Positions 29,078 to 64,000 of a stretch of 64,000 nucleotides of DNA are shown here, piece by piece. The notes below the pieces were generated by a model, which was not told where the DNA came from, did not search any database, and worked only from the letters and a program-made list of their open reading frames with translations. The stretch's first letter is position 1. Every line of letters begins with the position of its first letter. Position numbers and translations under genes: made by a program. The stretch lies in contig JBCCIS010000008.1 in NCBI GenBank assembly GCA_039028155.1, positions 73,004 to 137,003 of the forward strand, written 5' to 3'. The DNA is from Pseudomonadota bacterium (GTDB lineage Bacteria; Pseudomonadota; Alphaproteobacteria; SP197).

Positions 29078-29153
<76 letters not shown>

Positions 29154-40763: not shown

Positions 40764-40778
40764 GGTTAACCCCCGGCG

Positions 40779-41372
40779 ATGACAGAAACTGTCCGTTGTT
40801 GGAAAGATGAGACGATCGGCCGCGCCCTGAGCGTTTTGGTCGCGCTGCTATTGATTCCACTTTTGGTTGTTCCCGGGCAGATTGCCTTCGCCCAGGACGA
40901 CGTCCAGGTTTTCGACGATCGGATCTACAAGCTGGGCGTGGGCGATCGGCTGCGCGTGACCGTTTACAACGAGATCGATCTTTCGGGCGAGTTTGATGTC
41001 GGACCGGCGGGAACCGTAAACCTGCCGCTTATCGGCGAGGTGGCAGCCCAGGGTCGCACGATCCCGGAGGTCGAGGACGCCGCGGAGGAGTTGTTCTTAC
41101 AGGGTTACCTGAAGTCGCCCAGCGTCAGCATCGAGGTGCTGAACTATCGTCCATTTTACATTCTGGGCGAGGTCAACTCACCCGGCAGTTATCCGTTCGT
41201 TAATGGTATGACGGTATTAAATGCGGTGGCTCTGGCTGGCGGATTCACATATCGAGCCAGCGAGGGCAGCGTTTTGTTGAAGCGAGAAGGCGCCACGGCG
41301 GAAGTGTCGGTTGCTATCGACACGCCCGTGTTGCCAGGCGACGTTCTAACGGTGGAAGAGCGTTTCTTCTAA
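40779..41372 (+). CDS. Polysaccharide export protein, short Wza/GumB/EpsE-like (Poly_export domain)
   Basis: YKLGVGDRLRVTVY...NLPLIGEV...GYLKSPSVSIEV poly_export/SLBB signature; only 197 aa, so it lacks the Wza C-terminal OM helix. Confidence 0.8.
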   Translation: MTETVRCWKDETIGRALSVLVALLLIPLLVVPGQIAFAQDDVQVFDDRIYKLGVGDRLRVTVYNEIDLSGEFDVGPAGTVNLPLIGEVAAQGRTIPEVEDAAEELFLQGYLKSPSVSIEVLNYRPFYILGEVNSPGSYPFVNGMTVLNAVALAGGFTYRASEGSVLLKREGATAEVSVAIDTPVLPGDVLTVEERFF

Positions 41373-47352: not shown

Positions 47353-48578
47353 ACCCGGCTCAGCGCCATCATCCCGGTCTGGCGTGCTTGGCTGCGTTGT
47401 CGACGCATTGTAATCCGTGAGAAGTCCGGCCAGAGGGAGACCAACGCCATAAAGAGAAACGCCTCCGTGCCCGAAGCTTCCAAGCCGCAGATGATCAGCG
47501 CCGTGATGTAAAAGATGACGAAGGAGAACAGATAGGCCTTGCGCGCCGGTGCGTCCATCTCACCGGTCAGCTTCATATAGCGCACGAAGCGAAGCGTTCG
47601 GTGGATCGCGGCGATCCAGATCAGCAGGTAGGCTGAAAGGCCGACCAGGCCATTCTCGACCATGATACGGAAGAACTCGCCATGGATAGATGTCCGCAAG
47701 AAGGGCGGGTAATAGGAAAACAACCTGTTGACCAGCATCTGGTAGCGGTTGGTACCGACACCGAACACGGGATGCTGCGAGAACAGTTCCATGCCCGCCT
47801 TGAAGGCGAAGATACGCTGTTCGTTGCTGAACGACACCGGCGCACCGGCCTGCGTATAACCGGTTTCGAATGCAAAGCTGCTGAGCTGTCGCAGCACGTA
47901 ATCGTCAACAAAGAAGACAGAAGCAGCCACAACGCAGATGATTGGCGCCACCAACGCCACAACAGCCTTGCTTGATCGCATGCCGATCAGGATCAGCAGT
48001 AGCGACAGGACGTAGACAATGAGCGCCTTGCGTTCTCCCGATATCAGGATCAATCCGCCCAACAAGCCGAACAACGCCAACTGCAAGAAGTTCGGCCGGA
48101 AGTTGCGCATCGCGATCCAGACCATGGTCAGCAGCGTGGCGACCGAGAACGTGTGCTTCAGTTCGTCCAGCCGCTTCCAGCCGGAGTAGTGGCCTTCGTT
48201 GACGTGCCAGCCGACGTTGAAGGCCAGAATGGCCCATGTAGCGCAAAACAGCACCCACCACTTCGCACCCCTGGGTGCTGGATCGTCGGCGTTGCAAAGG
48301 GCCAAAAGAAAAGCCATCAAGACACAAGCCTGAAGTCCTTCACGAATGCCGTTCGACTGGCCCACCATGAGGGCCGAGAACACGTGCACAAAAACGAATG
48401 GGAGCAGCAGCAGGTAGCCGGTCGGTAAGCGTATGTTCGCGCGCGCGAGGACCTTGTAGACCAGAAGGGCGGTCATCAATGCCGCGACGAAATCGAACGG
48501 CCGAAGCGTGATACCGCCGACCCGTTCCTCGATACCGCTGAACAGACTGAGTAGGGCAATAACGGCCAGCCAGGTCAT
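47349..48578 (-). CDS. O-antigen ligase / Wzy-like polysaccharide polymerase family membrane protein
   Basis: About 10 TM segments with a large periplasmic loop; 4-nt overlap with the downstream GT2 gene. Confidence 0.6.
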   Translation of the reverse strand: MTWLAVIALLSLFSGIEERVGGITLRPFDFVAALMTALLVYKVLARANIRLPTGYLLLLPFVFVHVFSALMVGQSNGIREGLQACVLMAFLLALCNADDPAPRGAKWWVLFCATWAILAFNVGWHVNEGHYSGWKRLDELKHTFSVATLLTMVWIAMRNFRPNFLQLALFGLLGGLILISGERKALIVYVLSLLLILIGMRSSKAVVALVAPIICVVAASVFFVDDYVLRQLSSFAFETGYTQAGAPVSFSNEQRIFAFKAGMELFSQHPVFGVGTNRYQMLVNRLFSYYPPFLRTSIHGEFFRIMVENGLVGLSAYLLIWIAAIHRTLRFVRYMKLTGEMDAPARKAYLFSFVIFYITALIICGLEASGTEAFLFMALVSLWPDFSRITMRRQRSQARQTGMMALSRV

Positions 48579-48774: not shown

Positions 48775-49797
48775 ATGATCGAGTTTTCCGTCGTCATACC
48801 GGTCTACAACAAAGAGCCCCATGTCGCCCGGGCGATCGCATCGGTCCTTAACCAATCATGTCCGCCCCGAGAAATCTTGGTGATCGACGATGCCTCGACC
48901 GACCGGTCGATCGAGATCATCGCCGAGATGGCTGGCGACAAGGTCCGAATGCTGGAGCGCGACACACCCGGACCCGGCGGATATGCAGCACGCAATCTTG
49001 GCATCAAGGAGGCGACGTCAGCGTGGATCGCGTTCCTGGATGCGGACGATGCGTGGAAACCCGATCACCTGGCCACACTCGACGCGACATTGGAGACGGC
49101 CCCTGACACGGTCGGCTGCGCCTTCGTCGGTAATCTCGTGCGTTCCAGCAGCGACGATGACGCCATGGCGGACACCGTCACCCGGATGCCCGTGTGCGAG
49201 ACCACGCATCTGGATTTCGATGACTTCCTCCGCCTGTGGCTCGCATTTGAGGATAGCCCGGTTCACACGTCGGGCACGGCAATCAAGCGGAGTGTCTTGT
49301 TGGACGTCGGCGGTTTCCCGGAGGGACGTTGCGAGCGCGGTGGCGACAAGGATTTGTGGCTTCGCACCTGCGCGGCGACCGAGGCGCTCGCCATCGCCAA
49401 GGTGACGTCGATCTACTATCGCGACGCCATCAATATGGTGACCCGGCAGGCCAGCCAGAACCGGGCGCATTGCATGTGTTATTCGCTGGACAAGCTTCAA
49501 GCCAGTTCCAGCGGGGAAAGGCGGAAGCTGCTTCAGAAGCTGCATAACTTCGAGGTCTTCCGTTATGCCGTCCTGTCGTGGCGCAAGGGCGATTTCGACC
49601 GGTCTCAGTTCCGGCAGTACTACACCCTGCGCGATCCCATAGGATTTTTGATGCTGCAGGGGATGAAGGTCGTGCCGGAGCGACGGGTCAGGATGTTCCG
49701 GCCGCTGCTGCGAAAGCTCAGGGGTGTTGCGTCCGGCAACCGGCAAGAGGTGGCGTCCGAACAGCGCGACGCCGGGCCTGAGCGCAAGACGACCTGA
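48775..49797 (+). CDS. Glycosyltransferase family 2
   Basis: FSVVIPVYNKE...VIDDASTD...FLDADD motifs. Confidence 0.8.
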   Translation: MIEFSVVIPVYNKEPHVARAIASVLNQSCPPREILVIDDASTDRSIEIIAEMAGDKVRMLERDTPGPGGYAARNLGIKEATSAWIAFLDADDAWKPDHLATLDATLETAPDTVGCAFVGNLVRSSSDDDAMADTVTRMPVCETTHLDFDDFLRLWLAFEDSPVHTSGTAIKRSVLLDVGGFPEGRCERGGDKDLWLRTCAATEALAIAKVTSIYYRDAINMVTRQASQNRAHCMCYSLDKLQASSSGERRKLLQKLHNFEVFRYAVLSWRKGDFDRSQFRQYYTLRDPIGFLMLQGMKVVPERRVRMFRPLLRKLRGVASGNRQEVASEQRDAGPERKTT

Positions 49798-49812: not shown

Positions 49813-51375
49813 CTAGATGTGGAGGTCGGGTATCAGACGGCGCAGCGGCGATGGCGCCCTGCGTCGGAACTCCGACAGCAACCAGACCCCGTTCGGGCCC
49901 AGGAACCATGACGGCTTCAAAAGGCAGACGCCGTAGCCCACAAGGCCACCGGTGATGGCCTCGAGCGGAAACTGCAGGTTCTTTTGAACGCCGCTCCAGA
50001 CGAAATGCTCACCGATTGTGAGGGCCACCAGAATGGGCGCTGAGAGCAGAATTGCCGGAAGAACAGCTTTTCCAATGTCCAGCCACCTGACATGAAGAAG
50101 CCGGTTCGAGAGGTGCATGCAAAGAAGGCAGCACGAGGCATAGGTAAAGACGACGGCGACACTGATTCCGATGACACCGTAATCGCTGCCAATGAGACAC
50201 CCGACAATGATGACGGTCGCGAAGGCTGCTTGGCGGGTGACGACTTCCTTGGCTCTGCCCAAGGCCATGAAGACAACGTTGGCGACCCTTAGATTGAGGC
50301 CAAAGATCATGGTCAGTGACAGAATGGCCGTCGGGACGATGGCCGGTGTCCATCGCTCGCCCAGCAGCAGCAACACCAAACCCTCAGCGCCGTGGCAGAC
50401 CACCACCATCAGCGGCGCGGCGGCCAGCGAACAAAGGGCGACGGCGCGCAGATAGCCCCGTGCCATGCGTGCCCTGTCGTTGTTCATGTCGGACATGACA
50501 GGGAACAGCACGTTCGTCGAGCCCAACAGGATGAGCGGGAAGTCGACGACACGGTTGGCGCGGCTGAAGATACCCAGAGCATCCGCGCCCAACACGCGGC
50601 CGACGATGAACTTTGCCGCGTTGTCGGACAGAACCGCCAGCGCGCCGGCAAGACTGAAACCCAGGCTTACGCCCAACAGGTCGCGCATATGCGACGTGAT
50701 GGCGGGGATCGGGTTGAAGCGGGCGCACCAGAACAGCACGGTGGTTTGCGTGAAGGCCAGGGCGATGTTGGCAATGACCAAGGCCCAGACGCCATAGCCA
50801 GCGACCGCCAGCGCAATGGCTATGCCGGTCGTCGCAAACAGAGACGAGCCCATTTCGGTCAAGGCGACAAGACGGAACTTTTTCCTGCGCCGCAGCAAGG
50901 CTATCGAGATAGAAAGGATGGGGTTGATCAGAACGATCAAACACATGGCCTTGAGCACGTCGCTCAGCACCGGCATGTGGAAGAAGGTCGCGATAATGCC
51001 GGACCCGAACCAGATGAGGACAACCGCTAACAGGTGGATCAAGAGCCCGCCGGTGAAGGCGTTGCGTACATGTAACGGCACCAGATCCTGGCGCTGAATA
51101 ATCGCCATTGGAAATCCGCCTTGAACGAGGCCGGATCGGGCAATGCCGATAAAGATCATCGCGGCGGCAAAGACACCGTAGTCCTCGGGCGTCAGCAGGC
51201 GCGCCAGAACGGCGACCGTGCCGAGGCTGAACACCATCATGATGACCCGGGCACTTGCGATCCACGCCATCCAGCCGATGGTTTGCGATGACGTGCTGCC
51301 TGGTGTGCTCTTCAACCTTAATCCCGCGAGGTCCGTGCGTTGCTGAATGGCGCCAGCGTGTTTATCGAACGGCAT
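49813..51375 (-). CDS. Polysaccharide flippase (Wzx, MOP/PST superfamily)
   Basis: 12-14 predicted TM segments typical of Wzx; real start may be the internal Met (about 51270). Confidence 0.7.
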   Translation of the reverse strand: MPFDKHAGAIQQRTDLAGLRLKSTPGSTSSQTIGWMAWIASARVIMMVFSLGTVAVLARLLTPEDYGVFAAAMIFIGIARSGLVQGGFPMAIIQRQDLVPLHVRNAFTGGLLIHLLAVVLIWFGSGIIATFFHMPVLSDVLKAMCLIVLINPILSISIALLRRRKKFRLVALTEMGSSLFATTGIAIALAVAGYGVWALVIANIALAFTQTTVLFWCARFNPIPAITSHMRDLLGVSLGFSLAGALAVLSDNAAKFIVGRVLGADALGIFSRANRVVDFPLILLGSTNVLFPVMSDMNNDRARMARGYLRAVALCSLAAAPLMVVVCHGAEGLVLLLLGERWTPAIVPTAILSLTMIFGLNLRVANVVFMALGRAKEVVTRQAAFATVIIVGCLIGSDYGVIGISVAVVFTYASCCLLCMHLSNRLLHVRWLDIGKAVLPAILLSAPILVALTIGEHFVWSGVQKNLQFPLEAITGGLVGYGVCLLKPSWFLGPNGVWLLSEFRRRAPSPLRRLIPDLHI

Positions 51376-52047: not shown

Positions 52048-52929
52048 ATGACTGACCTTCGTCGCGTCGCCCGGCAGGTTGCCAAGGAGGCCTTTTGTGC
52101 TTCGCTTGAAGGCCTCTCTTTTGTCGATCGAAGCCTGCGTTACGATAGCGACTTCGAATGGCTGATCATTCTGACGATGCCGAACAGTGGGTCGACCGCG
52201 CTGGCTCGGCTCCTCATGACGGCGAACTCCACCATCGCGTTGACGGAGCAGTGTGAAGGCGAGTGGTTGATCCCGTCGATGTCCAATCTGCGTCATCGCT
52301 GGGATGAGGATTTGCGACTTTCCATGTCGCGCGTACGCGCCAGATGGATGTGGCGGTTGCGCGCGATGAAGACGGGTTCACCGAAACTGGTCATCGAGAA
52401 GTCGCCACCGAACATGGTGCGGATCGACCGTATTCGCGCGGCTCTCGCCCCCATGGCGGCGCACACGGTTGTCTTGGTACGCGACCCCTATGCAGTCTGC
52501 GAAAGCTGGCATCGGCGCTACGGTAGAGAGCAGCTCTCAAGAACCTCGTTGACCGCCCTGCAGCATGTCGACAGTGAACGTGACTACTTCAGGCTTCTGG
52601 GGGAATGCTGGGTCCAGCGTGGCACCTACCTCGTCGAACAGTTGCCAAAGGCGTTGAGCGTCGTGCGCTATGAAGAGCTTGTGATGGATCCCGGTGCCGT
52701 CACAGCGGAACTGGCAAAGAAAATACCCATGCTGTCCGATGTGCAAAGTAACGCAGAGGTCCGCGTCAAAGACTATGCCGCGCAGGCATTAACGGACATG
52801 AACAGTCAGCAGATTGACGCGCTTACCACCGAACAGATTGATGCTATTACGTGTGGACTTGAGCGCGGAATCGACACGGTAAAGGCGCTCGGCTACACAT
52901 TGCGGCACGAGAGGTCCGCGCGTCCTTAA
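52048..52929 (+). CDS. Sulfotransferase family protein
   Basis: 5'-PSB-like P-loop LTMPNSGSTALARLL and 3'-PB-like VLVRDPYAVCESW; ATG 52048 chosen over 52000. Confidence 0.6.
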   Translation: MTDLRRVARQVAKEAFCASLEGLSFVDRSLRYDSDFEWLIILTMPNSGSTALARLLMTANSTIALTEQCEGEWLIPSMSNLRHRWDEDLRLSMSRVRARWMWRLRAMKTGSPKLVIEKSPPNMVRIDRIRAALAPMAAHTVVLVRDPYAVCESWHRRYGREQLSRTSLTALQHVDSERDYFRLLGECWVQRGTYLVEQLPKALSVVRYEELVMDPGAVTAELAKKIPMLSDVQSNAEVRVKDYAAQALTDMNSQQIDALTTEQIDAITCGLERGIDTVKALGYTLRHERSARP

Positions 52930-53055
52930 CCGTCGGGTCGCCATGTCATACCGCATGACGGATACACGGTGCCTTCGTTGGGTGTGTGCGGATCTGACCG
53001 AGAACGTCCGCGTTCACCCACCGCGTCATGCGCTGTTTCGGAGACAACGCATTTT

Positions 53056-54246
53056 ATGATTGAGAATGCCTCCGCAGCGGCTGCGTCAGGTCGCAAGACC
53101 GTTGTCATGGTGAGCTTGGGCATGCCGCCTGAAATCTATGGCGGCGCTGAGCAACAGTGCTTGCGGCTATCTCGATCGCTTGTCGAGCGAGGGCGTGATG
53201 TCATCATCCTGACAGCGAGCCATTCCCAAGAGCATGCCGAAGATGACGTCATCGATGGCGTCCGGGTTATTCGATTCCCGACCCGACATTCACCCGACCA
53301 CGGCGGACGGCACATTCTGAGCACGGTCAAATGGACCACCGCGGTTTACGGGTGGCTGCGTCGACACCGCCGACAGATTGGTGTCGTCCACGTTCACCAA
53401 GGCAAGCTTCATGTCTTGCCCGCCCTCCTTGCCCAGGCGTGGTTAGGATTACCTTTTATCATGAAAGTCGGCAGCGCCGAGGAGCAGTTCGACTATCTGC
53501 GCATGACAAGAAAATCGGGCGGCTACGGGCCGCTCGTGCTCAAGCAAGTCATCAAGCGGTGCAGCCGACATGTCGCAATAAGCTCCAGAATTGTCGATCA
53601 GATGCGCCAGATCGGCGTGCCCTCTGACCGCATTCGTCGCATTCCCAATGGTATCGATATCGAACAATTTCCGTTTGACTCATCGCGTCATGCCGGCGAG
53701 GACAAGACGTTCGTCTTCATGGGCCGGCTGGTCGATGAAAAGCAGCCTTTGATGATGTTGCGGTGTTTCGCCGACATTCTCCAAGCAGGCGGCCGCCATC
53801 AACTGATTGTCATCGGCGATGGGCCGCTTCTCGAGACCATGGCGTCATTCGTGCGCGATAGCGGCCTTGTCGAAGGGGTCCAACTGGTGGGCCGTCTCGA
53901 CGATGTCAGGCCGGTCTTGTCGAAGGCCCATTTTTTCCTTCTCCCGTCCAAGAACGAGGGCATGTCCAACGCCCTGTTGGAAGCCATGAGCCTTGGCCTG
54001 GTCCCCATCGCCAGCGCCGTCAGCGGCAGCACCGATATCGTCCGCCATGATGACAACGGGTATCTGTTCGACCGGGACGACGAGGCCACCTTTACCGCTT
54101 GCTTGCGAACCGCGGCGAGCATGTCCGACGCCCACTGGCGGACCATGCGCGAGGCCGCACGCTTGACCATCGTTGGCGAACATGTGATGGCCGACATTGC
54201 AGGAACTTATGTTGACCTATACCAATCCTTAGGTCACGAACGCTGA
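53056..54246 (+). CDS. Glycosyltransferase family 4
   Basis: N-terminal GGAEQQCLRLSRSLVERGRDVIILT and a C-terminal GT4 domain. Confidence 0.8.
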   Translation: MIENASAAAASGRKTVVMVSLGMPPEIYGGAEQQCLRLSRSLVERGRDVIILTASHSQEHAEDDVIDGVRVIRFPTRHSPDHGGRHILSTVKWTTAVYGWLRRHRRQIGVVHVHQGKLHVLPALLAQAWLGLPFIMKVGSAEEQFDYLRMTRKSGGYGPLVLKQVIKRCSRHVAISSRIVDQMRQIGVPSDRIRRIPNGIDIEQFPFDSSRHAGEDKTFVFMGRLVDEKQPLMMLRCFADILQAGGRHQLIVIGDGPLLETMASFVRDSGLVEGVQLVGRLDDVRPVLSKAHFFLLPSKNEGMSNALLEAMSLGLVPIASAVSGSTDIVRHDDNGYLFDRDDEATFTACLRTAASMSDAHWRTMREAARLTIVGEHVMADIAGTYVDLYQSLGHER

Positions 54247-54357
54247 GGACGAAGCTTTGCGGGTCGCCATGTCGGGCGAAGTGATGGTGACGGCCCTGCC
54301 GAGCGTAAGCTCCTCTCTTGTTTTATGACTTGTCTCAAAGGTTAAGGCCGTTCCTGT

Positions 54358-55323
54358 ATGAGTACCTTAAGGTCACGGGCGATGGTTGACGCTGGCGGTA
54401 AAGAAAAAATCGATAACGATGTGCCATTGGTGAGCATTGGCCTGCCGGTTTTTAATGGCGAAAACTATCTTCGCCAGTCCATTCAATCTATCCTCGACCA
54501 GACATTTCAAGACTTTGAGTTGATTGTCTCTGACAATTGTTCGACTGACGGAACCGAAGACATTTGCCGTGAGTTTGCCGCCAAGTCGGACAAGATCCGC
54601 TACTACAGGCAGACCGAGAACGTTGGCGCCTCCGCCAACTTTGATTTCACCTACCTTCAGGCCAAAGGCAAGTACTTCAAGTGGCAAGGACATGACGACT
54701 ATGCCTATCCAGAGTTTCTGGAGAAGTGCCTTGATCGCCTATTGAAAGAACCGGACGCCATTCTCTGCCAATCACACGTTGCGGTTGTCGATTCCCATGA
54801 CGAGCTCATCGAGGTCGAGGCCCATGAGACCCGTGGAACCAACAGTGACGATCCGATCAAACGATTCGCAGGCCGGCTGAGCAACCCGCGGTGCACGGAG
54901 ATCTTTGCCGTGTTTCCGACCGAGGTTCTTAGAGACACCGAGCGCCTGGGCGCGTTCGCCAGCAGCGACCGCTGCCTCTTGTCGCAGCTCGCGCTGAAAG
55001 GCCGGTTTTTGGACGTTCCCGAGGTGCTCTTTGCCTTTCGCATTCACCCCGAGCAGTTTTCGTCACAAGTCATGCGTCGCGGCAACTTCATGTACTGGTT
55101 CGACCCGAACCGCGCGGAATGGCCGACCATGCGCCACTGGACGCATTTTCTGCGATGCATTCGCTATCTAAGCTCGGAAGACCTTAGTTTTTGGAACCGC
55201 GTGCGCGGGTTTGGCGCGCTGTTTCGTGCTCAGATCAAGCCGAAGAGTTTGCGCGCCTACTTCCGCGAGAGTGGCCGCATGGCAAAGTACGGCGCTCGCA
55301 GGCTACTGGCCAAACTGACATAG
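54358..55323 (+). CDS. Glycosyltransferase family 2
   Basis: VSIGLPVFNGENYLRQSIQSILDQTFQDFELIVSDNCSTDGTEDI; notably lower GC (about 50%). Confidence 0.8.
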   Translation: MSTLRSRAMVDAGGKEKIDNDVPLVSIGLPVFNGENYLRQSIQSILDQTFQDFELIVSDNCSTDGTEDICREFAAKSDKIRYYRQTENVGASANFDFTYLQAKGKYFKWQGHDDYAYPEFLEKCLDRLLKEPDAILCQSHVAVVDSHDELIEVEAHETRGTNSDDPIKRFAGRLSNPRCTEIFAVFPTEVLRDTERLGAFASSDRCLLSQLALKGRFLDVPEVLFAFRIHPEQFSSQVMRRGNFMYWFDPNRAEWPTMRHWTHFLRCIRYLSSEDLSFWNRVRGFGALFRAQIKPKSLRAYFRESGRMAKYGARRLLAKLT

Positions 55324-55345
55324 GTCTGGACCTTAAGCCCGTCAG

Positions 55346-56281
55346 TCAGACGAACCACTTCTTCCAGTTCAGCGGTGAACGCGCCGGGTACTGAGGTTGA
55401 TAGCCCTCATGAACCAGGCAATCGCGCGCGACCGATTCAAAGTCGTCTATCTCGTTGGGTGTCAGGCTGGTTTGCCACGCGGTGATGCGGTCGGCCTGGG
55501 GCGCCTTGTTGACGTTGCTGTGCAGCTCAGGCCGGTATCTGTCGGCAATCTCGTACGTGCGCGGCATGTCGGACTGCTGGGTCGGTTTGACGTCAAGGAA
55601 CTCGGCGACCTCGGCCATCGTACGCTCGGTCTCGCGAATGAGCGTCTCGTAGTTCAAAATCAGGACGCCGCGATGGTCGAGCTCCAATTCGCGCAACAAG
55701 GTTGTTGTCTGGACCCATCGTTTGGCTGCGATCTTGGGGTCGTTGGCCATCGGTCTGCCGTTGCGCGATGCGATCGCCCTCTTCTTTGAATGAAACACGG
55801 CGCGGCCGTCTCTGATCAGCCCGATAAACTTGGCCGACGGGAACATCCTGAGGATTTCGCGGTAATCGTGAACGTACTTACCGTTCTTGATGCCGTAGCG
55901 GAAGTTGCTGGGTACGAGCTGGGCGCGATAGTAGTCCAGAATGATACGAACCGCGTCGGCCAGCGTTAGTGGCGCATGGTTGGACAACAGGCCCCGCAAG
56001 ACCGGGTAGGTGACCTTGAGGTCGGCGAACTTTCTGTCCGACGTAATGGTCATCGCCAGAGAGTCGAGTTGTGCCTCGGTCTCGAACGTGATGAACCCGA
56101 AATTCTCAAGCGTATCGGTAATGAAGTTCGTCTCAGGCGTGATGACGACCTGAAATCGCTTCGACAGCTCGTTCGCAAGGAACGTGGAACCCGACCGTGA
56201 GTCATAGAGGATGAAGAACGGATCCTCTTCACTCTTCGTTTCGACGCTTGTGACAACCTGACTAACCATCAACTCTTCCAC
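55346..56281 (-). CDS. Sulfotransferase family protein
   Basis: YDSRSGSTFLANEL (PAPS 5'-phosphosulfate-binding-like P-loop) and LIRDGRAVFHS (3'-PB-like RDPR motif). Confidence 0.6.
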   Translation of the reverse strand: MEELMVSQVVTSVETKSEEDPFFILYDSRSGSTFLANELSKRFQVVITPETNFITDTLENFGFITFETEAQLDSLAMTITSDRKFADLKVTYPVLRGLLSNHAPLTLADAVRIILDYYRAQLVPSNFRYGIKNGKYVHDYREILRMFPSAKFIGLIRDGRAVFHSKKRAIASRNGRPMANDPKIAAKRWVQTTTLLRELELDHRGVLILNYETLIRETERTMAEVAEFLDVKPTQQSDMPRTYEIADRYRPELHSNVNKAPQADRITAWQTSLTPNEIDDFESVARDCLVHEGYQPQYPARSPLNWKKWFV

Positions 56282-56941
56282 TTATTGGACGACCGTCCAT
56301 CCCTACGAACCAGCCTTACGATCCCATCCTTTCGTTCTACGCGATGCCGATCAGCGGCTGTAGAGAGGGCAATTGCAGTCAACGTTTCCCATTTGTCGGT
56401 CAAGGCAGTCGCTTGGTCGAATTGTTCGGTGCAATGACAAATCCGGCAAGGGCCTGGACTCCGATGAACTTGACGCTGTCATCACGTCGACGAACCGCAG
56501 GCGCGGCCAATTGACCGCGCGCATCGCCGATAACGAACATTGGTTCTTATGCACTCTAACACCGCGAACACTACCGCCAAAAAACCGCGTTTCAGCGAGG
56601 CTACCCTGATACCCCTTATGGATATCATACCAATTTAGAGGTATAGATCGCCACCCTGAAATGCAGAATTTCTGGGCCTTGTGTGGAGAGGACACTGCGA
56701 GAGGACGTTGCTGTCGGCGATTTCTGTTGGTTTTTCGCTCTGCCGGGTGTTTTTGGGTTCCCAAGACAACCTTTTGCCTACAAAAGCGGCCATATGGTGA
56801 CCCGGTCGCCCATCTTGTGCGGCCTGCGTGGTTTTTTGAGTCGACAGTGTTTGGAACGGAGCGCGTGGCGCCGCAAAGTCGGTAAGCCCGGGCGTTGCCG
56901 GCGATGTGGTTTCGAGACGACCTGCTAGGCGGACCGTGGGA

Positions 56942-57652
56942 ATGACTAAACAGACGACCCAGCTATCCTATGAGCGGCAGACCTATCGCAGCGTCAACCC
57001 GTTGGCGCGGTTCGCGCACGGCTCGCGGTTCGGCTTGTCGCAATCGCTTGCCTCCGGGAATCTGCCGTCGGGCGCGACGCTTATCGACTATGGCGCCGGC
57101 GACGGGCGCTTCCTTAGAGACCTCTCGCAGATGCGATCGGATGCCGAGCTCTATGGGCTGGAGCCCTATATGAAGCCGCCTGCCGACGGTGATCGGGGCT
57201 TTACGCGTCTAACGGCTCTGGAACAGGCGCAAGGGCGTGAGTACGGCGTGATCACATGTTTCGAAGTGCTGGAACATCTGGAGCCTGCCGACACCGATAT
57301 CTTTGTCGATTTTGTCCAGCAGTCTCTCGCACCGGATGGTTACCTCATTGTCAGCGTTCCAATCATGTACGGACCCGTCCTGGTTCCCAAAGCGCTGAAC
57401 GCGAAGTACGTCAAGAAGAGCGATTGGAGCTATTCGCTGACGGAGTTGATCCGGGGCGTCCTTGCGCGGCCTGTAGAGCGTGACCCGGGAAACCTCTACC
57501 TCAATCACAAGGGTTACGATTGGCGCAAGACGCGCGATCGGTTGAACATGCATTTTGAGGAGGCGGAATGCCGGTTCAGCCCGTTCTCGTCGTTGTGGTG
57601 GGGGTTCAACAGCCAGTGGTTCGGCGTCTTCCGGAAGCCGCGCGCGCAATGA
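56942..57652 (+). CDS. Class I SAM-dependent methyltransferase
   Basis: Motif I LIDYGAGDGRF; post I LYGLEP; VITCFEVLEHLEP. Confidence 0.75.
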   Translation: MTKQTTQLSYERQTYRSVNPLARFAHGSRFGLSQSLASGNLPSGATLIDYGAGDGRFLRDLSQMRSDAELYGLEPYMKPPADGDRGFTRLTALEQAQGREYGVITCFEVLEHLEPADTDIFVDFVQQSLAPDGYLIVSVPIMYGPVLVPKALNAKYVKKSDWSYSLTELIRGVLARPVERDPGNLYLNHKGYDWRKTRDRLNMHFEEAECRFSPFSSLWWGFNSQWFGVFRKPRAQ

Positions 57653-57668
57653 TCGTGCGGACGGCTTC

Positions 57669-58532
57669 GTGACTCAAAATGAGACCGTCGGCGACCATGC
57701 CGAAACCGTCGCTAACGACAGCGGGCGTGCACCGCGCGCGCGCGTTGACCGTGCCATTCTGCTCAACTGTTTCGGGCGCGGCGGATCAAGCATCGCCTGG
57801 AACATGATCGGCAGTTCGCCCGACGTCCTGATGCCAGCAAGCGAGTGGCATCATGGCTTTTATGGGCGTTGGCAGATTGTTGGCCGATCGCTCAGACGTG
57901 TCGTTCGCGCCACGCAAGCCGACGTCCCTGCATTGGCGCCTCTGTCGGGCCTTCTCTACAAACGCGCATGCGCTTCCGTGCCGGCGACCGAACGAGACGC
58001 CAAACCTGGCGCGTCGTCGGTCGTTTTGAAGGTCATGGACCATCACATTGCCATGAACCCGACCCTCGCGACGAGTTTCCCCAGCACGAGCCAGGTCGTT
58101 CTTGTTCGCCATCCGTTGGCCCAGTGCGAGAGCTTGCTGCGCCACGGGCTCGATATAGGCCAGGCGACTGCTTGGTATGTCGACGTGATGCGGCGGATGA
58201 TCAGGCTGGCCGAGACACCGGGTACGATCGTCTGTCGTTTTGACAACCTCGTGCGCGATCCCTTTGCCGAACGCGATTTCCTTTACGACAAACTCGGGCT
58301 GACAAGACCGCAACCGGATGGGTTCGCGCTGAAGCGCAAAAAGTTTGGCGCGGAGCGCACAACCGACGTCAAGGTTGCCGCCGGCGACTATGTCGACGTC
58401 ACGCCTGGTAATGTTGCCGAGCTCATCGACAAGGATGTCAATGAACGTTCGATTGCCAGGCTTTCTGACAGCAACAAGGAGCATGTGTGGAAAGCAACCG
58501 ATGAGGTAGCATCTTACTTCGGCTACAATTAA
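57669..58532 (+). CDS. Sulfotransferase-like protein (paralog of 52048-52929)
   Basis: LLNCFGRGGSSIAWNMI P-loop and VLVRHPLAQCESL resemble the 52048 gene motifs; GTG start inferred and uncertain; the ORF extends upstream into the methyltransferase gene. Confidence 0.45.
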   Translation: MTQNETVGDHAETVANDSGRAPRARVDRAILLNCFGRGGSSIAWNMIGSSPDVLMPASEWHHGFYGRWQIVGRSLRRVVRATQADVPALAPLSGLLYKRACASVPATERDAKPGASSVVLKVMDHHIAMNPTLATSFPSTSQVVLVRHPLAQCESLLRHGLDIGQATAWYVDVMRRMIRLAETPGTIVCRFDNLVRDPFAERDFLYDKLGLTRPQPDGFALKRKKFGAERTTDVKVAAGDYVDVTPGNVAELIDKDVNERSIARLSDSNKEHVWKATDEVASYFGYN

Positions 58533-58773
58533 GAATTGACACCCGTGCGATGAACCGTAGAGTTTAAGGTCCGATGTGACCGTATGCGACCATGCTTCTG
58601 CCGATGATGTGTGCACAACGAGGCGGCAGGCTGAAACATGGGATCGGCGTTTTGATGGCGCCATGTTTGGAACAGTAGTCGCCCGATGGTTCTGTAGAAA
58701 CGCAACTCTCGCTTTCTCGCGCACACCTCTATGAGGCGCTCAACGTCTTCATTGATCACCGGCCCTTCGATCG

Positions 58774-59751
58774 TTGGAACAGATTCGACCAATCTTTATC
58801 TTTTCTCTGCCGCGAAGCGGGTCGACGTTGCTACAGCGGATTCTCGCCGCCCACGACCGCATCGAGACAACGACGGAACCCTGGTTGCTTCTGCCGCAGT
58901 TTTACGTCTTCAGGCCCGAACGCGCAGCGTCGGAATACGGTCATCGCCTGTGCAGCACGGCTATTGGTGAGTTTGTCGCCGGGCTGCCGGATGGCGAGGC
59001 GTCCTACCGTCGTGCGATAAACTCATTTGCCTCGCAGCTCTATCGTGAAGCAGCTGGCCCGAGCGCTCGATACTTTGTCGACAAGACACCTATCTACAGC
59101 CTTGTCGTTAGCGAGATCATGGAGACGTTTCCGGAGGCCAAATTTCTGTTTCTGTGGCGCAATCCCCTCGCCATTGTCTCATCGCTCATCACGACATACG
59201 GGCGTGATCGCTTCAATATCGTGCGGTTCAAACTGGAACTCTTCAATGGCCTTGACAATCTTCTTCAGGCCAATCGGAGCCATGAAGGAACGTCGTTTGC
59301 GCTGCGTTTCGAGGACTTGACTGAACGGCCGAGCGTTGTCTTGCCGAGAGTCTTCGAGTTCCTTGAATTGCCTTATGACGAGTCTGTTCAGCAAGAGTTT
59401 TCGCGTGTTTCGTTAGACGGGGTGCACGGCGACCACACGGGCAGCGTTCGATACGACAAACTCTCGACGGAACCTCTCGACAAGTGGAAGAACGTTCTGA
59501 CGAACAAGCTGAGAAAGCGGTGGTCAGCGCGTTATCTCAGATGGATGGGTGAAGATAGGCTCTGCGCGATGGGTTATGAGCTCAATGAGCTGATGCAAGA
59601 CCTGGAGAATGTGCCGGGTAGTCGAGATCACCTTGCCGCCGATGCCTACACCTACGCGAAACAGACGTTCTTTGCGTTGCTGCAATGGCAGCTCATCAGG
59701 ACGCGCTACCACCTGCGACGCAAGGGATTGCCCCTGGTCACCTACGACTGA
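58774..59751 (+). CDS. Sulfotransferase family protein
   Basis: FIFSLPRSGSTLLQRIL P-loop and LFLWRNPLAIVSS 3'-PB-like motif; TTG start. Confidence 0.65.
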   Translation: MEQIRPIFIFSLPRSGSTLLQRILAAHDRIETTTEPWLLLPQFYVFRPERAASEYGHRLCSTAIGEFVAGLPDGEASYRRAINSFASQLYREAAGPSARYFVDKTPIYSLVVSEIMETFPEAKFLFLWRNPLAIVSSLITTYGRDRFNIVRFKLELFNGLDNLLQANRSHEGTSFALRFEDLTERPSVVLPRVFEFLELPYDESVQQEFSRVSLDGVHGDHTGSVRYDKLSTEPLDKWKNVLTNKLRKRWSARYLRWMGEDRLCAMGYELNELMQDLENVPGSRDHLAADAYTYAKQTFFALLQWQLIRTRYHLRRKGLPLVTYD

Positions 59752-59773
59752 TTTGTCTGGTCTGGCGAGCCGG

Positions 59774-61069
59774 TCAGGACGAAAACAAGCGGTCTTGTTC
59801 GGCGCGCAACCGGACCATCAGACTGTTGTCGTCGAGGGTGACGTCGTCATAGGTGATGGCACTGTCTTGTGAGACATCACGCGTCAGAACCGCGCCTTCG
59901 ACGAGACCGAAGGGTAAGAGCCGGTCGCGGCGAACGATGTCGTGGTTCTCGCACAGCCCGTAGGACATGTAGCCGCCAAGCCCGTCGAGCGTTTCGCCAC
60001 GCTTCAGGTCGCGCTTGGCAATGGCGATAACATCGACCACCGGCGCGCCGCGTGGGGCGATGATGACATCGTTGGCAAGCGCGACGCGCGCCGCGGAAAG
60101 AGGCACCTCGAAGACCATCAGATGGTAGGGGACATAGAAACTGTACAACGGCCCCTCGCCAAGTTTGGCGTAGTTCAGATAGTGGCGTTGCATATCGTCT
60201 TGGGCTTCGGCGAAAACGTAAACACCGGGACTGGGCTCGGCGCCGAGCACGTAGTCGACTATGCCGCCCAACTCCCGGACACGGTCGATGTCGTAGTGGC
60301 CGATCAGCTCGTCGACATGGCCTTTCAGCTCCGGGCCAATCATGCCCCGTTGGGCAACGCGCATGCCCGTCGCGTTGCCGACAATGGCCTGCTCGAACGC
60401 GATCTTGGTGCCGTCGGCGAAGCTTGTCACCATATGCGGCGTTTGATTCCACTGCTTGGCGAACTTCGCCTGCGTCGTTGGGTTGCGATAGTGGTCCAGC
60501 AAGCCCTTGATGTTGCCGCAAACCAGAGGCCGCAGGCCGATGCTCTGAACGAAGCGATAGAGGTTCATCTGTACGCCCGGCTGATCGCCGTCGCAGCCAG
60601 TCAAGATGACGCCGGTGTCGTCGGCACGCTTCTTGAGTAGCGGTCCGATGGAGCCATCCAGTTCGGCGTTCATCAGCACCATTGACTTGCCGTTCTCGAT
60701 CGCCGTCAGAACAACCTGGGCGCCGTAGGCAATGTGACCGGTCGCCTCGATGAGCACCTCGACCTGACCGGAGGCGCAGACGGCGTCGAGGTTGTCGGTC
60801 AGCGCGGTCTTGCCCATCTCGATGGCGTGGTCGACGGCCACGGCGCTGTTTGCTTCGATGATGTCGGCGGCGTCGACACCGGCGTCTTCCAACGCTTTGC
60901 GGGCGGTCGCAAACGTTCGATTGCACAGCGCCGCGACGCGCATGCCCGGCATGTAACGGACAATCTGATTGATGAAACCACGGCTCATCGAACCGGCACC
61001 TATAACGCCGACTCTCAGCGGATCATGTGCGCGCGCTCTTTCATCTAGCAGCGTATCGACAATAACCAT
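59774..61069 (-). CDS. NAD(P)-binding oxidoreductase, homoserine-dehydrogenase-like with C-terminal SAF domain (COG4091-like)
   Basis: N-terminal Rossmann fold VGVIGAGSMSRGF; homoserine-DH-like central domain; about 100 C-terminal residues compatible with a SAF domain; transcribed after rfbG-rfbF. Confidence 0.5.
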   Translation of the reverse strand: MVIVDTLLDERARAHDPLRVGVIGAGSMSRGFINQIVRYMPGMRVAALCNRTFATARKALEDAGVDAADIIEANSAVAVDHAIEMGKTALTDNLDAVCASGQVEVLIEATGHIAYGAQVVLTAIENGKSMVLMNAELDGSIGPLLKKRADDTGVILTGCDGDQPGVQMNLYRFVQSIGLRPLVCGNIKGLLDHYRNPTTQAKFAKQWNQTPHMVTSFADGTKIAFEQAIVGNATGMRVAQRGMIGPELKGHVDELIGHYDIDRVRELGGIVDYVLGAEPSPGVYVFAEAQDDMQRHYLNYAKLGEGPLYSFYVPYHLMVFEVPLSAARVALANDVIIAPRGAPVVDVIAIAKRDLKRGETLDGLGGYMSYGLCENHDIVRRDRLLPFGLVEGAVLTRDVSQDSAITYDDVTLDDNSLMVRLRAEQDRLFSS

Positions 61070-61154: not shown

Positions 61155-61946
61155 CTAATCACGATGCGACGTCTTTTCTTCCCAAACCTGCCAAGGCGGG
61201 TTCTCTGAAGCCCATTGTTCCTCCAGGACCTTTCTATCTCTCAGCGTATCCATGTTCTGCCAGTAGCCATCATGGACATAGGCCGCGAGCTTGCCGCGTT
61301 GGACGAGATGCTCCATGGGTTCGCGTTCCCACACGGTGTCGTCGCCGTCGATAAGATCAAAGACCTCCGGCTCCAGAACAAAAAATCCGCCGTTGATGTA
61401 AGCGCCGTCGCCGTGTGGCTTTTCACGGAAGTTGACGATCTTCTCGTTTTGAATCTGCAGGGCGCCAAAACGGCCGGGCTGCTGGACCGCGGTCAGCGTC
61501 GCCCATGCGCCCGAGTCCTTGTGAAACTTGATCAGCTTGTTGATGTCGAGATCGCTAACACCGTCGCCATAGGTCAGACAGAACGTTTCATCGCCGACAA
61601 AATCGCGCACGCGTTTCAGCCGGCCGCCGGTCATGGTGTTCAGGCCGGTGTGAACACAAGTGACGGTCCAGTCCTCGCCGGGCTCTGAATGGGCCTCCAG
61701 GGTGTTGTTCTTCAGGTCAAACGTCATATCCGCGTTACGCACAAAGTACTCCGCGAAGTACTGTTTGATCAGATGTCCCTTGTAGCCGCAGCAAACGATG
61801 AACTCGTTGAGACCGTGCGCGGCATAGATCTTCATGATGTGCCACAGGATCGGTTGTTCACCGATGTTGATCAGCGGTTTCGGCATCGTGCCGCTGGCTT
61901 CGGAGATGCGGGTGCCAAAACCGCCAGCTAAGACGACGACCTTCAA
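61155..61946 (-). CDS. rfbF: Glucose-1-phosphate cytidylyltransferase
   Basis: MKVVVLAGGFGTRISE...PKPLINIG N-terminus and full-length similarity to RfbF/DdhA. Confidence 0.9.
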   Translation of the reverse strand: MKVVVLAGGFGTRISEASGTMPKPLINIGEQPILWHIMKIYAAHGLNEFIVCCGYKGHLIKQYFAEYFVRNADMTFDLKNNTLEAHSEPGEDWTVTCVHTGLNTMTGGRLKRVRDFVGDETFCLTYGDGVSDLDINKLIKFHKDSGAWATLTAVQQPGRFGALQIQNEKIVNFREKPHGDGAYINGGFFVLEPEVFDLIDGDDTVWEREPMEHLVQRGKLAAYVHDGYWQNMDTLRDRKVLEEQWASENPPWQVWEEKTSHRD

Positions 61947-62131: not shown

Positions 62132-63217
62132 TCATGGCGCGGCGGTTTGGTAGGCGTTGATCTCGGACAGGGTGACAGAGCTCATGTCGGCGCCATCAAG
62201 CCACTGGCGAAACCACGACGCGACCGATGCGATGGCGATACGGCCGACCATCTCATCGTCCCAGCCTAACGTGGACCGGGCAAGCGAGGCATCGATTTGA
62301 AGGTACGGTGCTTCGATCGATCCGGGAACCGGTTCGACGAGGACCTTTGGACAGCCGTTGGCGGTGACGTGACCCAAAGCGCTGAGCAACGTTTCGGCAA
62401 AGATCCGGACCGGCAGGTCCTCAGACGAGCGCGGGCCTATGTTGAGCGTCCGCGGGCAAGAAGGATCCTGTGAGAGCGTCTCGACAAACAGAAGATAACC
62501 GCACAGGCAATCGAGCGCATGCTGCCATGGGCGCGTTGCTTCGGGATGCCGCAATGTCAGCGGCTCACCTTCCAATGCTGCACGCACACAGTCGGGCGCA
62601 ATGCGATCGGCGGCGAAGTCACCGCCACCGATGACATTGCCGCCACGCGACGTCGCAACGCGAATGCCATCGCGTTCGAAGTAGCTTTGAGCGTATGTAT
62701 GCGCGACGTGTTCGGCGGCCGCCTTGGAGGCGGAGTAGGGGTCTTTGCCACCCAAGGGTGCCGACTCCTTAAATGCGCATCCGCAGCCATTGTTCCAATA
62801 GACCTTGTCCGATGTAACAATCAGGACGGTGTGCAGATCGGTCTCGCCGCGCAACGCTTCCATGAGATTGACCAATCCGGTCACATTGGTGTCGAACGTC
62901 TCGATCGGATCTTCAAGCGAGCGGCGCACTAGTGCCTGGGCGGCCAGATGGAGGACGATTTCCGGGCGGGCTTCACGCACCGCGTCGGCAACGGAGGAGG
63001 CGTCACGCAGATCGACGAAGTGGCTGTCGCAATGGCTCGCCACATCGGCCAAGCTGAAAAGGTTCGGGCCGTCCGCCGGGGGCAGGGCAAACGCGTAGAC
63101 ATCGGCGCCCAACTGGCTGAGCCAAAGCGCCAACCACGACCCCTTGAAGCCGGTGTGCCCCGTCAGCAGCACACGTCGGCCATTCCAAAATTCCTGATCT
63201 GGCCGCCGAACGCTCAT
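62132..63217 (-). CDS. rfbG: CDP-glucose 4,6-dehydratase
   Basis: LLTGHTGFKGSWLALWL Rossmann fold and YSASKAAAE catalytic YxxxK; ATG at 63217 chosen (MSVRRPDQEFWNGRRVLLTGHTG). Confidence 0.85.
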   Translation of the reverse strand: MSVRRPDQEFWNGRRVLLTGHTGFKGSWLALWLSQLGADVYAFALPPADGPNLFSLADVASHCDSHFVDLRDASSVADAVREARPEIVLHLAAQALVRRSLEDPIETFDTNVTGLVNLMEALRGETDLHTVLIVTSDKVYWNNGCGCAFKESAPLGGKDPYSASKAAAEHVAHTYAQSYFERDGIRVATSRGGNVIGGGDFAADRIAPDCVRAALEGEPLTLRHPEATRPWQHALDCLCGYLLFVETLSQDPSCPRTLNIGPRSSEDLPVRIFAETLLSALGHVTANGCPKVLVEPVPGSIEAPYLQIDASLARSTLGWDDEMVGRIAIASVASWFRQWLDGADMSSVTLSEINAYQTAAP

Positions 63218-63472
63218 GCGGACCTCCGTCGTCTTCCGCAACAGGCAACAACTGGCCGTGCGATGAGGCGAACACACTCATTGCCCTATTTTGCACCCTA
63301 GGGCTGTGATCCATCCATACTTTGACCGCAATTTCTGCCGACTACCGCTTTTGCGCCAAAAGCAGCCGATAGAGCTACTCGCGCGCGCCCTGTCCGCTCT
63401 AAGTCGTGATGGGGCGTTTAATCGCGTCTTTTCGCGTGGTAAATCTAACTCGAAAGTAGAGTCGTTCCGGTG

Positions 63473-64000
63473 TCACTCTACCTGATAGTCGTCGATCGCC
63501 GCCACATCGCAAATCATGAGTGGGGCTGCATCGCTGTTGGCCGCGAGCCAGCTCTTTGCCCAACGTGTGCCGAGCTCCTTGTCGGCTGGTGATGTCGAGT
63601 GTTCGATCAAGGCAATATTGGTCAAGAACAGGAGGTAGTTGATCTGCGCGTCGTTCTGCGCCTGTCGATCAATGCCGCGAGCGCAGGCTAGGGCGACCAG
63701 CAGCCACTGATAAACCCGCGCGCGTTTATCCTCAGCGTCCGACAGGGCCCAGTATGTTGCCAGGTGCCGTTGCGCGGTCGGCCGTGCCGCAAGTGCGGCA
63801 TCTTCCAAGATATTGCGGCCTTGCTCGATCTTGTCGGGATCCCCGGTCAGGATCATCTGAAGCGCGGCACGTTCGTTCTCGCTCTCGACGATCATCGATT
63901 CAAGAAGCTGATTGAGCGAGACGCTGCCGTTTTCTTGAGGTTGTTGCATGGCGTAAATCGCGGCGACGACAAATGCCGTTATCGCGGCAACGACGATGTA
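63473..64000 (-). CDS. Hypothetical protein; the N-terminus, including a TM helix, runs off the window end
   Basis: 158-aa ORF. The in-frame upstream 17 codons to the window edge encode the hydrophobic YIVVAAITAFVVAAIYA, so the real start probably lies beyond 64000. Confidence 0.35.
   Translation of the reverse strand, partial: YIVVAAITAFVVAAIYAMQQPQENGSVSLNQLLESMIVESENERAALQMILTGDPDKIEQGRNILEDAALAARPTAQRHLATYWALSDAEDKRARVYQWLLVALACARGIDRQAQNDAQINYLLFLTNIALIEHSTSPADKELGTRWAKSWLAANSDAAPLMICDVAAIDDYQVE

Follow-up and report, generated by a model that had tools for sequence, protein, structure and literature searches.

Four divergent sulfotransferase-family genes in a predicted Wzx/Wzy-dependent polysaccharide locus of an uncultured alphaproteobacterium

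Recent papers state that sulfated polysaccharides of bacteria are confined to cyanobacteria (PMC8205485, PMC13390465). The xss cluster for synechan, carried by plasmid pSYSM of Synechocystis sp. PCC 6803, includes two sulfotransferases, and its product is chemically sulfated (PMC8205485). Outside the cyanobacteria, the capsular polysaccharide (CPS) of Vibrio sp. KMM 8419 has been chemically proven to be sulfated (PMC11641403), sulfation has been proposed for the product of the wps-1 cluster of Actinoplanes missouriensis (PMC13390465), and sulfotransferase genes are annotated among polysaccharide genes on a plasmid of Sagittula stellata E-37 (NZ_CP155733.1). Here we describe a locus of this kind in the window, a 64,000-nucleotide stretch of contig JBCCIS010000008.1 (assembly GCA_039028155.1), whose own numbering is used throughout. 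We consider the region between 36.05 and 63.95 kb likely to be an exopolysaccharide (EPS) or capsule locus, chromosomal and Wzx/Wzy-dependent, in which up to four sulfotransferases, named ST-A to ST-D, and one methyltransferase (MT) decorate the repeat unit. The product predicted from the genes is probably a heavily sulfated, methylated slime or capsule. The five putative modification genes are the following:

52048-52929, forward strand: ST-A, sulfotransferase family (Sulfotransfer_3, 45.6 bits; Sulfotransfer_1, 24.7 bits)
55346-56281, reverse strand: ST-B, sulfotransferase family (Sulfotransfer_3, 69.3 bits)
56942-57652, forward strand: MT, class I S-adenosylmethionine (SAM)-dependent methyltransferase (Methyltransf_23, 49.4 bits), without counterpart in the related contig L001
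57669-58532, forward strand: ST-C, sulfotransferase family (Sulfotransfer_3, 30.3 bits)
58774-59751, forward strand: ST-D, sulfotransferase family (Sulfotransfer_3, 111.5 bits; Sulfotransfer_1, 40.8 bits)

A sequence-only reading of the window had assigned the four open reading frames (ORFs) to the sulfotransferase family from their P-loops. All four exceed the curated cut-off of the Pfam model Sulfotransfer_3 (PF13469, 27 bits; that of Sulfotransfer_1 is 22 bits), and the loops that were quoted, which would bind 3'-phosphoadenosine 5'-phosphosulfate (PAPS), are present in the translations: PNSGST in ST-A, SRSGST in ST-B, GRGGSS in ST-C, and PRSGST in ST-D. The same reading had reported a downstream motif of RDP type for the 3'-phosphate. 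An Arg followed eight residues on by a Ser (R-x-x-x-x-x-x-x-S) indeed occurs in all four proteins, more specifically RDPYAVCES in ST-A (R145/S153), RDGRAVFHS in ST-B, RHPLAQCES in ST-C (R147/S155), and RNPLAIVSS in ST-D (R129/S137); RDP itself is found in ST-A only, and is replaced by RDG, RHP, and RNP in ST-B, ST-C, and ST-D, respectively. A direct alignment of the four sequences was too poor for use, and the family alignments served to position the motifs. All members of the ST-A, ST-C, and ST-D families have the Arg, while the Ser is invariant in that of ST-D (118/118), present in 110 of 122 sequences in that of ST-A, and variable in that of ST-C. A Glu lies 21-24 residues past the loop, E70 in ST-A (122/122), E59 in ST-C (invariant), and E35 in ST-D (118/118); E50 of ST-B, read from the single sequence and not from a family alignment, has the same spacing. 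This Glu is a candidate catalytic base, by analogy with the tyrosylprotein sulfotransferases (TPSTs) and the CurM sulfotransferase.

Profiles of the ST-D and ST-C families retrieve exactly these four proteins among all stop-to-stop ORFs of the window and detect each other's members, so the matches are not due to chance. Pairwise identity among the four is 22-29%, over partial alignments, which indicates four subfamilies and not recent duplicates; such divergence is compatible with different sulfated positions or sugars. No NCBIfam model scores above its threshold for any of the four, and the only sub-threshold match is that of ST-D to NoeE. The profile searches that the sequence-only reading had proposed, with non-sulfotransferase P-loop families such as kinases as the alternative, placed all four in Sulfotransfer_3, and the PDB matches are the CurM sulfotransferase and TPSTs. 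We therefore rejected a P-loop kinase or other NTPase identity, as every profile, PDB, and fold match is a sulfotransferase. The nearest solved structures are those of the sulfotransferase domains of CurM and OLS and of TPSTs (4GBM, 4GOX, 3AP1, 5WRI), which have the same overall fold and in which the PAPS loop recurs, as do the motifs (E/D)K(S/T)P and R-x-P-x5-S. They differ in their acceptors, the β-hydroxyl of an acyl-acyl carrier protein or a peptide tyrosine, in having no polysaccharide context, and in sequence, with 12-19% identity in structural alignments.

How close is this locus to those already described? Like xss, it is a Wzx/Wzy EPS cluster with sulfotransferase genes interleaved with glycosyltransferase (GT) genes; its sulfotransferases also come from distinct subfamilies, and the unit would be modified on the cytoplasmic side before flipping, as in the xss model. 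The differences are nevertheless numerous. The xss cluster has two sulfotransferases and not four, no methyltransferase is listed for it, it is plasmid-borne and cyanobacterial, and its outer-membrane polysaccharide export (OPX) gene lies elsewhere, whereas a Wza-like gene is part of the locus here. The regulators XssQ, XssR, and XssS control xss, whereas no histidine kinase, response regulator, or STAND protein occurs among the Pfam-scanned ORFs of the window. The second sulfotransferase in the pSYSM cluster (XssE by gene order) shares 24% identity with ST-B, over 89% of the latter's length, and 20% with ST-D; the two are its distant homologues and not its orthologues. XssA, a Lys-type, Sulfotransfer_1-like protein, has no clear counterpart, the best being a partial match of ST-D (22% identity over 118 residues, E 4e-6). 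Given that neither XssQRS nor orthologues of XssA and XssE are present, the locus is not an xss cluster.

The wps-1 cluster (PMC13390465) is likewise of the Wzx/Wzy EPS type and combines a SAM methyltransferase with two sulfotransferases that come from different families, but it belongs to an actinomycete, its two sulfotransferases fall into other InterPro families, it includes a glycoside hydrolase and a kinase-like gene, and sulfation is there a proposal. The Sagittula locus (L019 in our set, ~14000-19500, considered from its annotation only) is that of a cultured alphaproteobacterium and shares at least three sulfotransferases, a methyltransferase-domain gene, many GTs, a tyrosine autokinase, an O-antigen-ligase/Wzy-family gene, and a priming sugar transferase. 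It differs in being plasmid-borne, in its Sulfotransfer_2 and Sulfotransfer_1 types, in its ABC transporter gene, and in its sugar supply, with GDP-fucose and UDP-sugar genes there and a CDP-glucose pathway here. Vibrio sp. KMM 8419 (PMC11641403) is, as here, a member of the Pseudomonadota, with three sulfotransferase genes, and related strains vary in their sulfotransferase content; in contrast, its capsule is of the ABC-transporter (Kps) type, its sulfotransferases are spread over an 80-gene region, and second copies of cysNDC lie inside its locus, with none found here among the window ORFs of at least 150 residues. The four sulfotransferases thus exceed the two to three of the characterised examples. 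The earlier statement that such polysaccharides are rare was too strong in view of the published clusters with several sulfotransferases (xss, PMC8205485; wps-1, PMC13390465; Vibrio KMM 8419, PMC11641403) and the annotated Sagittula plasmid; the locus is a plausible prediction, not an unprecedented one, and a further example of the same general kind.

ST-D belongs to a large and widespread subfamily (2314 homologues), in which R14, G16, S17, T18, E35, K104, R129, and S137 are invariant (118/118) and all of these are carried by the window protein. Against PDB sequences, it matches the CurM sulfotransferase with an E value of 5e-7. It is 33% identical to a sulfotransferase of the Sagittula stellata E-37 plasmid over 97% of its length, and its relatives in metagenome-assembled genomes (MAGs) of Rhodothermales and Solirubrobacterales are flanked by GT and Wzc-like genes. 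Judging from the sequence, translation of ST-D must start at TTG 58774. The alignment to the Pfam model then begins at its first position, and a homologue of the same length, 325 residues, is found at 80% identity. The public 307-residue call, P0001, begins 18 codons past this TTG; it thus leaves out 58774-58827 and, with it, the PRSGST loop.

ST-B matches TPST1 among PDB sequences with an E value of 2e-6, RDGRAxxHS motif included; its start may be ATG 56269, giving the 307 residues called in relatives. This match raises the question of other acceptors, namely lipopolysaccharide (LPS) core or lipid A, a glycolipid, an oligosaccharide signal secreted in the manner of Nod factors, or peptide tyrosines as for RaxST. 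The nearest solved relatives of ST-B are TPSTs, ST-D has a distant relative in NoeE, whose annotation is that of a nodulation protein (28% identity to NoeE of NGR234 over 81% of the length), and glycolipid sulfotransferases are known in rhizobia (PMC11625862). Nevertheless, identities to TPST and NoeE are below 30% and scores lie far under the family cut-offs (45 bits for ST-D with the NoeE model, cut-off 500), and neither a candidate peptide substrate, nor a nod gene, nor a transporter of the RaxAB kind was found by Pfam scans of the window. NoeE itself is known as a Nod-factor sulfotransferase. The sulfotransferase genes sit among GT, Wzx, and sugar-nucleotide genes, their position is kept in relatives, and homologues in unrelated bacteria are also found within polysaccharide loci. 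Acceptors other than the repeat unit of this polymer therefore appear very unlikely to us, even though the similarities to TPST and NoeE count to some extent in their favour.

The coordinates of ST-C are those of the NCBI protein (287 residues). Only 34 homologues were found in a large protein collection; in the 29 aligned, GRGGS (R37), E59-W60-H61, K121, R147, P149, and E154 are invariant. The single sequence had no match among PDB sequences, while the family profile detects the CurM sulfotransferase with an E value of 9e-5. The structure prediction proposed in the sequence-only reading was carried out for this protein, and the AlphaFold2 model from the family alignment (mean predicted local distance difference test score 86.8) was compared with the PDB by Foldseek; ST-A, ST-B, and ST-D were compared with 4GBM and TPST by sequence. 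The best 50 matches are all sulfotransferases (OLS, CurM, TPST1/2, heparan-sulfate 3-O-sulfotransferases, Stf1; best E value 1.8e-8). The model thus identifies ST-C as a divergent sulfotransferase of a small subfamily. Its relatives in Mesorhizobium sp. adjoin Wzx, GT4, pyruvyl-transferase, and Wzc-like genes, and a relative in another MAG adjoins GT4 and pyruvyl-transferase genes. The Mesorhizobium loci (GCA_004016605.1 and GCA_004016995.1, our contigs L009 and L010) carry the ST-C-family gene at 10001-10852, as well as a SyrA-family gene, and their gene content makes them candidates for a sulfated EPS in rhizobia of this genus.

ST-A has an atypical PAPS loop. A review of sulfotransferases regards the Lys or Arg of the PAPS loop as the defining catalytic residue (PMC11625862), and ST-A has P-N-S-G-S-T, with Asn at this position; in its alignment with the CurM sulfotransferase (phmmer against PDB sequences, E 0.006), N46 pairs with the Arg in the loop of CurM. 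When 1.84 billion representatives were searched exhaustively, 428 relatives came up at E values up to 0.001; of the 122 near-full-length ones, 69 have Asn at this position, 36 have Tyr, and only 4 have Arg. In the same 122 sequences, G48, T50, E70, R145, and P147 are invariant, K118 is kept in 121, R125 in 115, and S153 in 110; K118 and R125 are candidates for the residue that would stand in for the loop Lys/Arg. ST-A thus belongs to a conserved subfamily without the canonical catalytic Lys/Arg.

The Asn makes the notion of four active enzymes insecure, and further points weigh with it against that notion: ST-C passes the Pfam cut-off narrowly (30.3 against 27 bits, the weakest of the four) and its fold TM-scores are moderate (~0.55), four positions that are highly conserved in the ST-D family are changed in ST-D itself (Ile stands in place of R107, for example), and what we propose on activity and product is built on sequence and structure prediction. 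Accordingly, one may suppose that only some of the four are active, with ST-A and possibly ST-C being pseudoenzymes, scaffolds that bind PAPS or PAP, or enzymes of altered chemistry, so that the polymer carries fewer sulfates than there are genes. In Synechocystis, EPS accumulation and bloom formation were not substantially affected when xssE, one of the two cluster sulfotransferases, was deleted (PMC8205485), which fits such a view. On the other hand, Asn or Tyr is a trait of the whole ST-A subfamily (428 representatives), and the conservation of the residues around the loop (E70 and R145 invariant, K118 and S153 nearly so) points to a functional active site under selection and not to decay. 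ST-A orthologues in related loci are intact and 78-89% identical, and ST-C keeps the invariant R37, E59, K121, and R147. We regard partial activity as somewhat unlikely, and ST-A itself as probably active on these grounds of conservation, perhaps by a different mechanism.

The sulfotransferase genes are part of a polysaccharide locus of about 28 kb with a complete Wzx/Wzy/Wza/Wzc set. Pfam and NCBIfam profiles bear out the Wzx flippase, Wzy-like polymerase, priming transferase, and Wza/Wzc proteins of the sequence-only reading, as well as the interleaving of sulfotransferase genes with GT2, GT4, and methyltransferase genes, a GT4 and a GT2 gene lying between ST-A and ST-B. In addition to the genes given above, the locus comprises:

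36052-36582, reverse strand: RmlC-type sugar-nucleotide 3,5-epimerase, at the left edge of the locus (Pfam dTDP_sugar_isom, 223 bits; TIGR01221 rmlC, 182 bits, cut-off 155.75)
37367-38824, reverse strand: WcaJ-type undecaprenyl-phosphate glucose-1-phosphate transferase, the priming enzyme (Bac_transf, 226.7 bits; TIGR03023 WcaJ_sugtrans, 427.3 bits, cut-off 410.75; ~5 hydrophobic segments)
39426-40763, forward strand: outer-membrane beta-barrel of the BBP2_2 family, distantly EpsL-like (PF10082, 337.5 bits; PEP-CTERM-associated EpsL and TIGR03016 weak and sub-threshold)
40779-41372, forward strand: short Wza-like outer-membrane polysaccharide export protein, 197 residues (Poly_export, 70 bits; SLBB, 45.7 bits)
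41616-43859, forward strand: Wzc-like co-polymerase with tyrosine autokinase domain (Pfam Wzz, GNVR, AAA_31; TIGR01007, 123.8 bits, cut-off 108.05)
43970-45127, forward strand: GT4 glycosyltransferase (Glycos_transf_1, 104.9 bits; Glyco_transf_4)
45138-46265, reverse strand: GT4 glycosyltransferase (Glycos_transf_1, 103.9 bits)
46369-47352, reverse strand: GT2 glycosyltransferase (Glycos_transf_2, 115.4 bits)
47349-48578, reverse strand: Wzy-type repeat-unit polymerase, as judged from context (Wzy_C, 55.3 bits, cut-off 31.7; ~8 hydrophobic segments)
48775-49797, forward strand: GT2 glycosyltransferase (Glycos_transf_2, 107.7 bits)
49813-51375, reverse strand: Wzx flippase of the MOP family (Polysacc_synt_3, 214.8 bits; ~13 hydrophobic segments)
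52969-54246, forward strand: GT4 glycosyltransferase (Glyco_trans_1_4, 98.3 bits; Glyco_transf_4, 79.4 bits)
54358-55323, forward strand: GT2 glycosyltransferase (Glycos_transf_2, 107.5 bits), 90-97% identical in related loci
59774-61069, reverse strand: oxidoreductase of the DRL (DXR-like) family with SAF domain (DRL_cat, 175.5 bits, and SAF), 92-95% identical in relatives
61155-61946, reverse strand: glucose-1-phosphate cytidylyltransferase RfbF (TIGR02623, 410.1 bits, cut-off 300.25)
62132-63277, reverse strand: CDP-glucose 4,6-dehydratase RfbG (TIGR02622, 376.9 bits, cut-off 278.45)
63473-63949, reverse strand: conserved hypothetical protein of 158 residues that closes the locus on the right and matches neither a Pfam nor an NCBIfam model (94% identical in L013, 85% in L016)

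In the related contigs L008 and L013, unrelated genes (Rieske oxygenase, GntR) directly follow the homologue of 63473-63949, which places the end of the locus at about 64 kb. The Wzy_C protein is taken for a polymerase and not a ligase from its context.

A pathway can be proposed from the established models of the identified families. The WcaJ-type enzyme would prime undecaprenyl phosphate with glucose-1-phosphate, and the six glycosyltransferases (three GT4, three GT2) would extend it to a repeat unit of about seven sugars, a number that one sugar per glycosyltransferase plus the primer suggests; this is a rule of thumb, and the predicted size is correspondingly soft. RfbF and RfbG, together with the DRL-like reductase and the RmlC-like epimerase, would probably supply one of the sugars as a CDP-derived 6-deoxyhexose. 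Sulfate esters would be added on the cytoplasmic side of the inner membrane by as many as four soluble sulfotransferases that use PAPS, and an O-methyl group by the SAM methyltransferase. This is the simplest scheme and follows the one put forward for synechan (PMC8205485), in which the unit is built on undecaprenyl diphosphate. No hydrophobic segments are present in the four sulfotransferases or the methyltransferase, and PAPS and SAM are cytoplasmic, so sulfation most likely takes place in the cytoplasm, on the lipid-linked repeat unit. Wzx would then flip the decorated unit, Wzy would polymerise it, and Wzc, the short Wza-like protein, and the BBP2_2 barrel would export the polymer.

The supply of the sulfate donor is another difficulty for this pathway. 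As the sequence-only reading had noted for PAPS-synthesis genes, no ATP sulfurylase or APS kinase (adenosine 5'-phosphosulfate kinase) gene of cysD, cysN, or cysC type is found by Pfam scan among the ORFs of at least 150 residues in the 64-kb window, and many alphaproteobacteria assimilate sulfate via APS without making PAPS. The locus could therefore be intact with sulfation silent, since no PAPS would be made, and the polymer unsulfated or only methylated. The co-location of PAPS genes with sulfotransferases, proposed as a hallmark in the Vibrio sulfated-CPS study (PMC11641403), would agree with this; the genes listed for the xss cluster, nevertheless, include none for PAPS synthesis (PMC8205485). 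The sulfotransferase ORFs of the window are intact and their orthologues 74-94% identical, whereas long disuse would give wider decay. PAPS-synthesis genes normally lie elsewhere in the genome. We consider silent sulfation improbable; the donor may be supplied from outside the window.

The DRL-like protein deserves comment. It matches the Brucella DRL structures 3UPL and 3UPY over its full length (E 1e-69 to 1e-70), and its gene is co-oriented with rfbF and rfbG. Brucella DRL is an alternative reductoisomerase of the methylerythritol phosphate (MEP) pathway. The gene neighbourhood suggests that the protein of the window is possibly a CDP-4-keto-6-deoxyhexose reductase, and it may belong to DLO1 or DLO2, sister families of DRL that are uncharacterised (PMC3847144). 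If it does act on CDP-4-keto-6-deoxyhexose, a function would be given to these orphan families.

Six related contigs were recovered, with backbone proteins 75-99% identical, and their content was compared by gene and by DNA. The modification genes are distributed as follows:

Window (Logan fragments L003 and L004 identical): ST-A, ST-B, MT, ST-C, ST-D
L013: ST-A, ST-B, MT, ST-C; without ST-D
L008: ST-A, ST-B, MT, ST-C; without ST-D
L016: ST-B, MT, ST-C; without ST-D; the contig stops before the ST-A position
L017 (low coverage, fragmented gene calls): ST-B, ST-C; without ST-D; MT not detected
L001: ST-B, ST-C, ST-D; without ST-A and without MT

The window and L013 are collinear at ~88-90% DNA identity except at 58528-59778, comprising ST-D and its upstream spacer, in whose place L013 has ~95 bp; the segment is missing in L008 too. 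The breakpoints of this indel coincide with the stop codons of ST-C and of the DRL gene, and no flanking repeats were seen at its junctions. In L001, 51296-53021 (ST-A) and 56663-57744 (MT) are missing as equally clean indels. These single-gene indels fall in otherwise collinear loci of 77-90% nucleotide identity, and the sulfotransferase orthologues (74-94% protein identity) are mostly intact. In L008, a contig from ENA (9593-10545; contig coverage 4x), the ST-B orthologue is split in two frames at residue 240/241, either by a frameshift mutation or by an assembly error, and ST-B is also fragmented in the low-coverage L017.

ST-B and ST-C therefore form a conserved core; the other three, ST-A, MT, and ST-D, are cassettes of one gene each that close relatives have gained or lost. 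As the modification genes are modular, strains should differ in their pattern of sulfation and methylation in a serotype-like manner. One could go further and suppose that the cassettes serve to diversify the polymer, ST-B and ST-C laying down a fixed pattern and ST-A, MT, and ST-D being swapped as a 'sulfation serotype' on which phages or grazers, for instance, might exert selection, and that ST-A represents a widespread class of carbohydrate sulfotransferases with an Asn/Tyr loop and modified catalysis. This combined extension is rather unlikely in our estimation.

Two side features of the locus concern its spacers and its export genes. The ORF at 56351-56764 (reverse strand, 137 residues), lying in the 660-bp spacer between ST-B and MT, was rejected as a gene, having no family match and a G+C content at third codon positions of 0.54, compared to 0.66-0.79 in the genes of the locus; the spacer is probably non-coding divergent promoter space. 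At the same position in L008, a translated stretch is 40% similar. A promoter and terminator scan gave counts no higher than the shuffled expectation; a TTGACA-16-TAGAGT site (58536-58563), located where the ST-D cassette begins, was noted and not used as evidence. The export module (39426-41372), with its BBP2_2 barrel and unusually short Wza-like protein, recalls the pairing of EpsL with EpsE in PEP-CTERM/exosortase loci; however, scores with every PEP-CTERM model are far under the cut-off, and no exosortase is found in the window.

The host can be placed from two other genes of the window. A two-piece, permuted tmRNA of the alphaproteobacterial type (alpha_tmRNA, 5180-5475, reverse strand, 251.9 bits) identifies the class as Alphaproteobacteria, and the best named matches of IlvC are from Roseospira and MAGs of Rhodospirillaceae/Alphaproteobacteria (~80% identity). 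On these two genes, the source is an uncultured alphaproteobacterium, whose MAG was deposited as 'Pseudomonadota bacterium'; the window proteins are MEM7120912-MEM7120938 in GenBank, on a contig of 142,005 bp. The part of the window before 36 kb holds housekeeping genes (acrB, thyX, hflKC, degP, serB, miaA, ilvIHC, mreBCD-mrdA-rodA, and others), which indicates that the polysaccharide locus is chromosomal. A megablast of 52-60 kb against plasmids gave no match. The G+C content of the locus is lower than that of the flank (0.588 versus 0.623). A scan of GTDB genomes with ST-D found only distant homologues, 38-42% identical and in other phyla, and no close relative turned up when a metagenome collection was scanned with the conserved GT2 (54358-55323), the host lineage being rare in that collection. 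In the upstream flank, the longest ORF of a urocanase-like gene (29039-31174) has a 5' extension that contains a tRNA gene (29078-29150, forward strand), so the true start of the urocanase-like gene must be downstream of the tRNA.

Sulfated polysaccharides from bacteria are in demand as materials resembling heparin and carrageenan, and the acceptor or the sulfated position is known for very few of the bacterial sulfotransferases that act on polysaccharides. The locus adds a predicted non-cyanobacterial example. The plasmid locus of Sagittula stellata E-37, a cultured roseobacter, would lend itself to work on bacterial polysaccharides with multiple sulfates, and the relatives without ST-A, MT, or ST-D are natural knock-outs, that is, natural controls for assigning each enzyme to a modification. 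A specialist would not be surprised by the locus, and no new biological principle emerges; it is a useful enzyme-mining lead, with four divergent candidate sulfotransferases brought together in one defined context.

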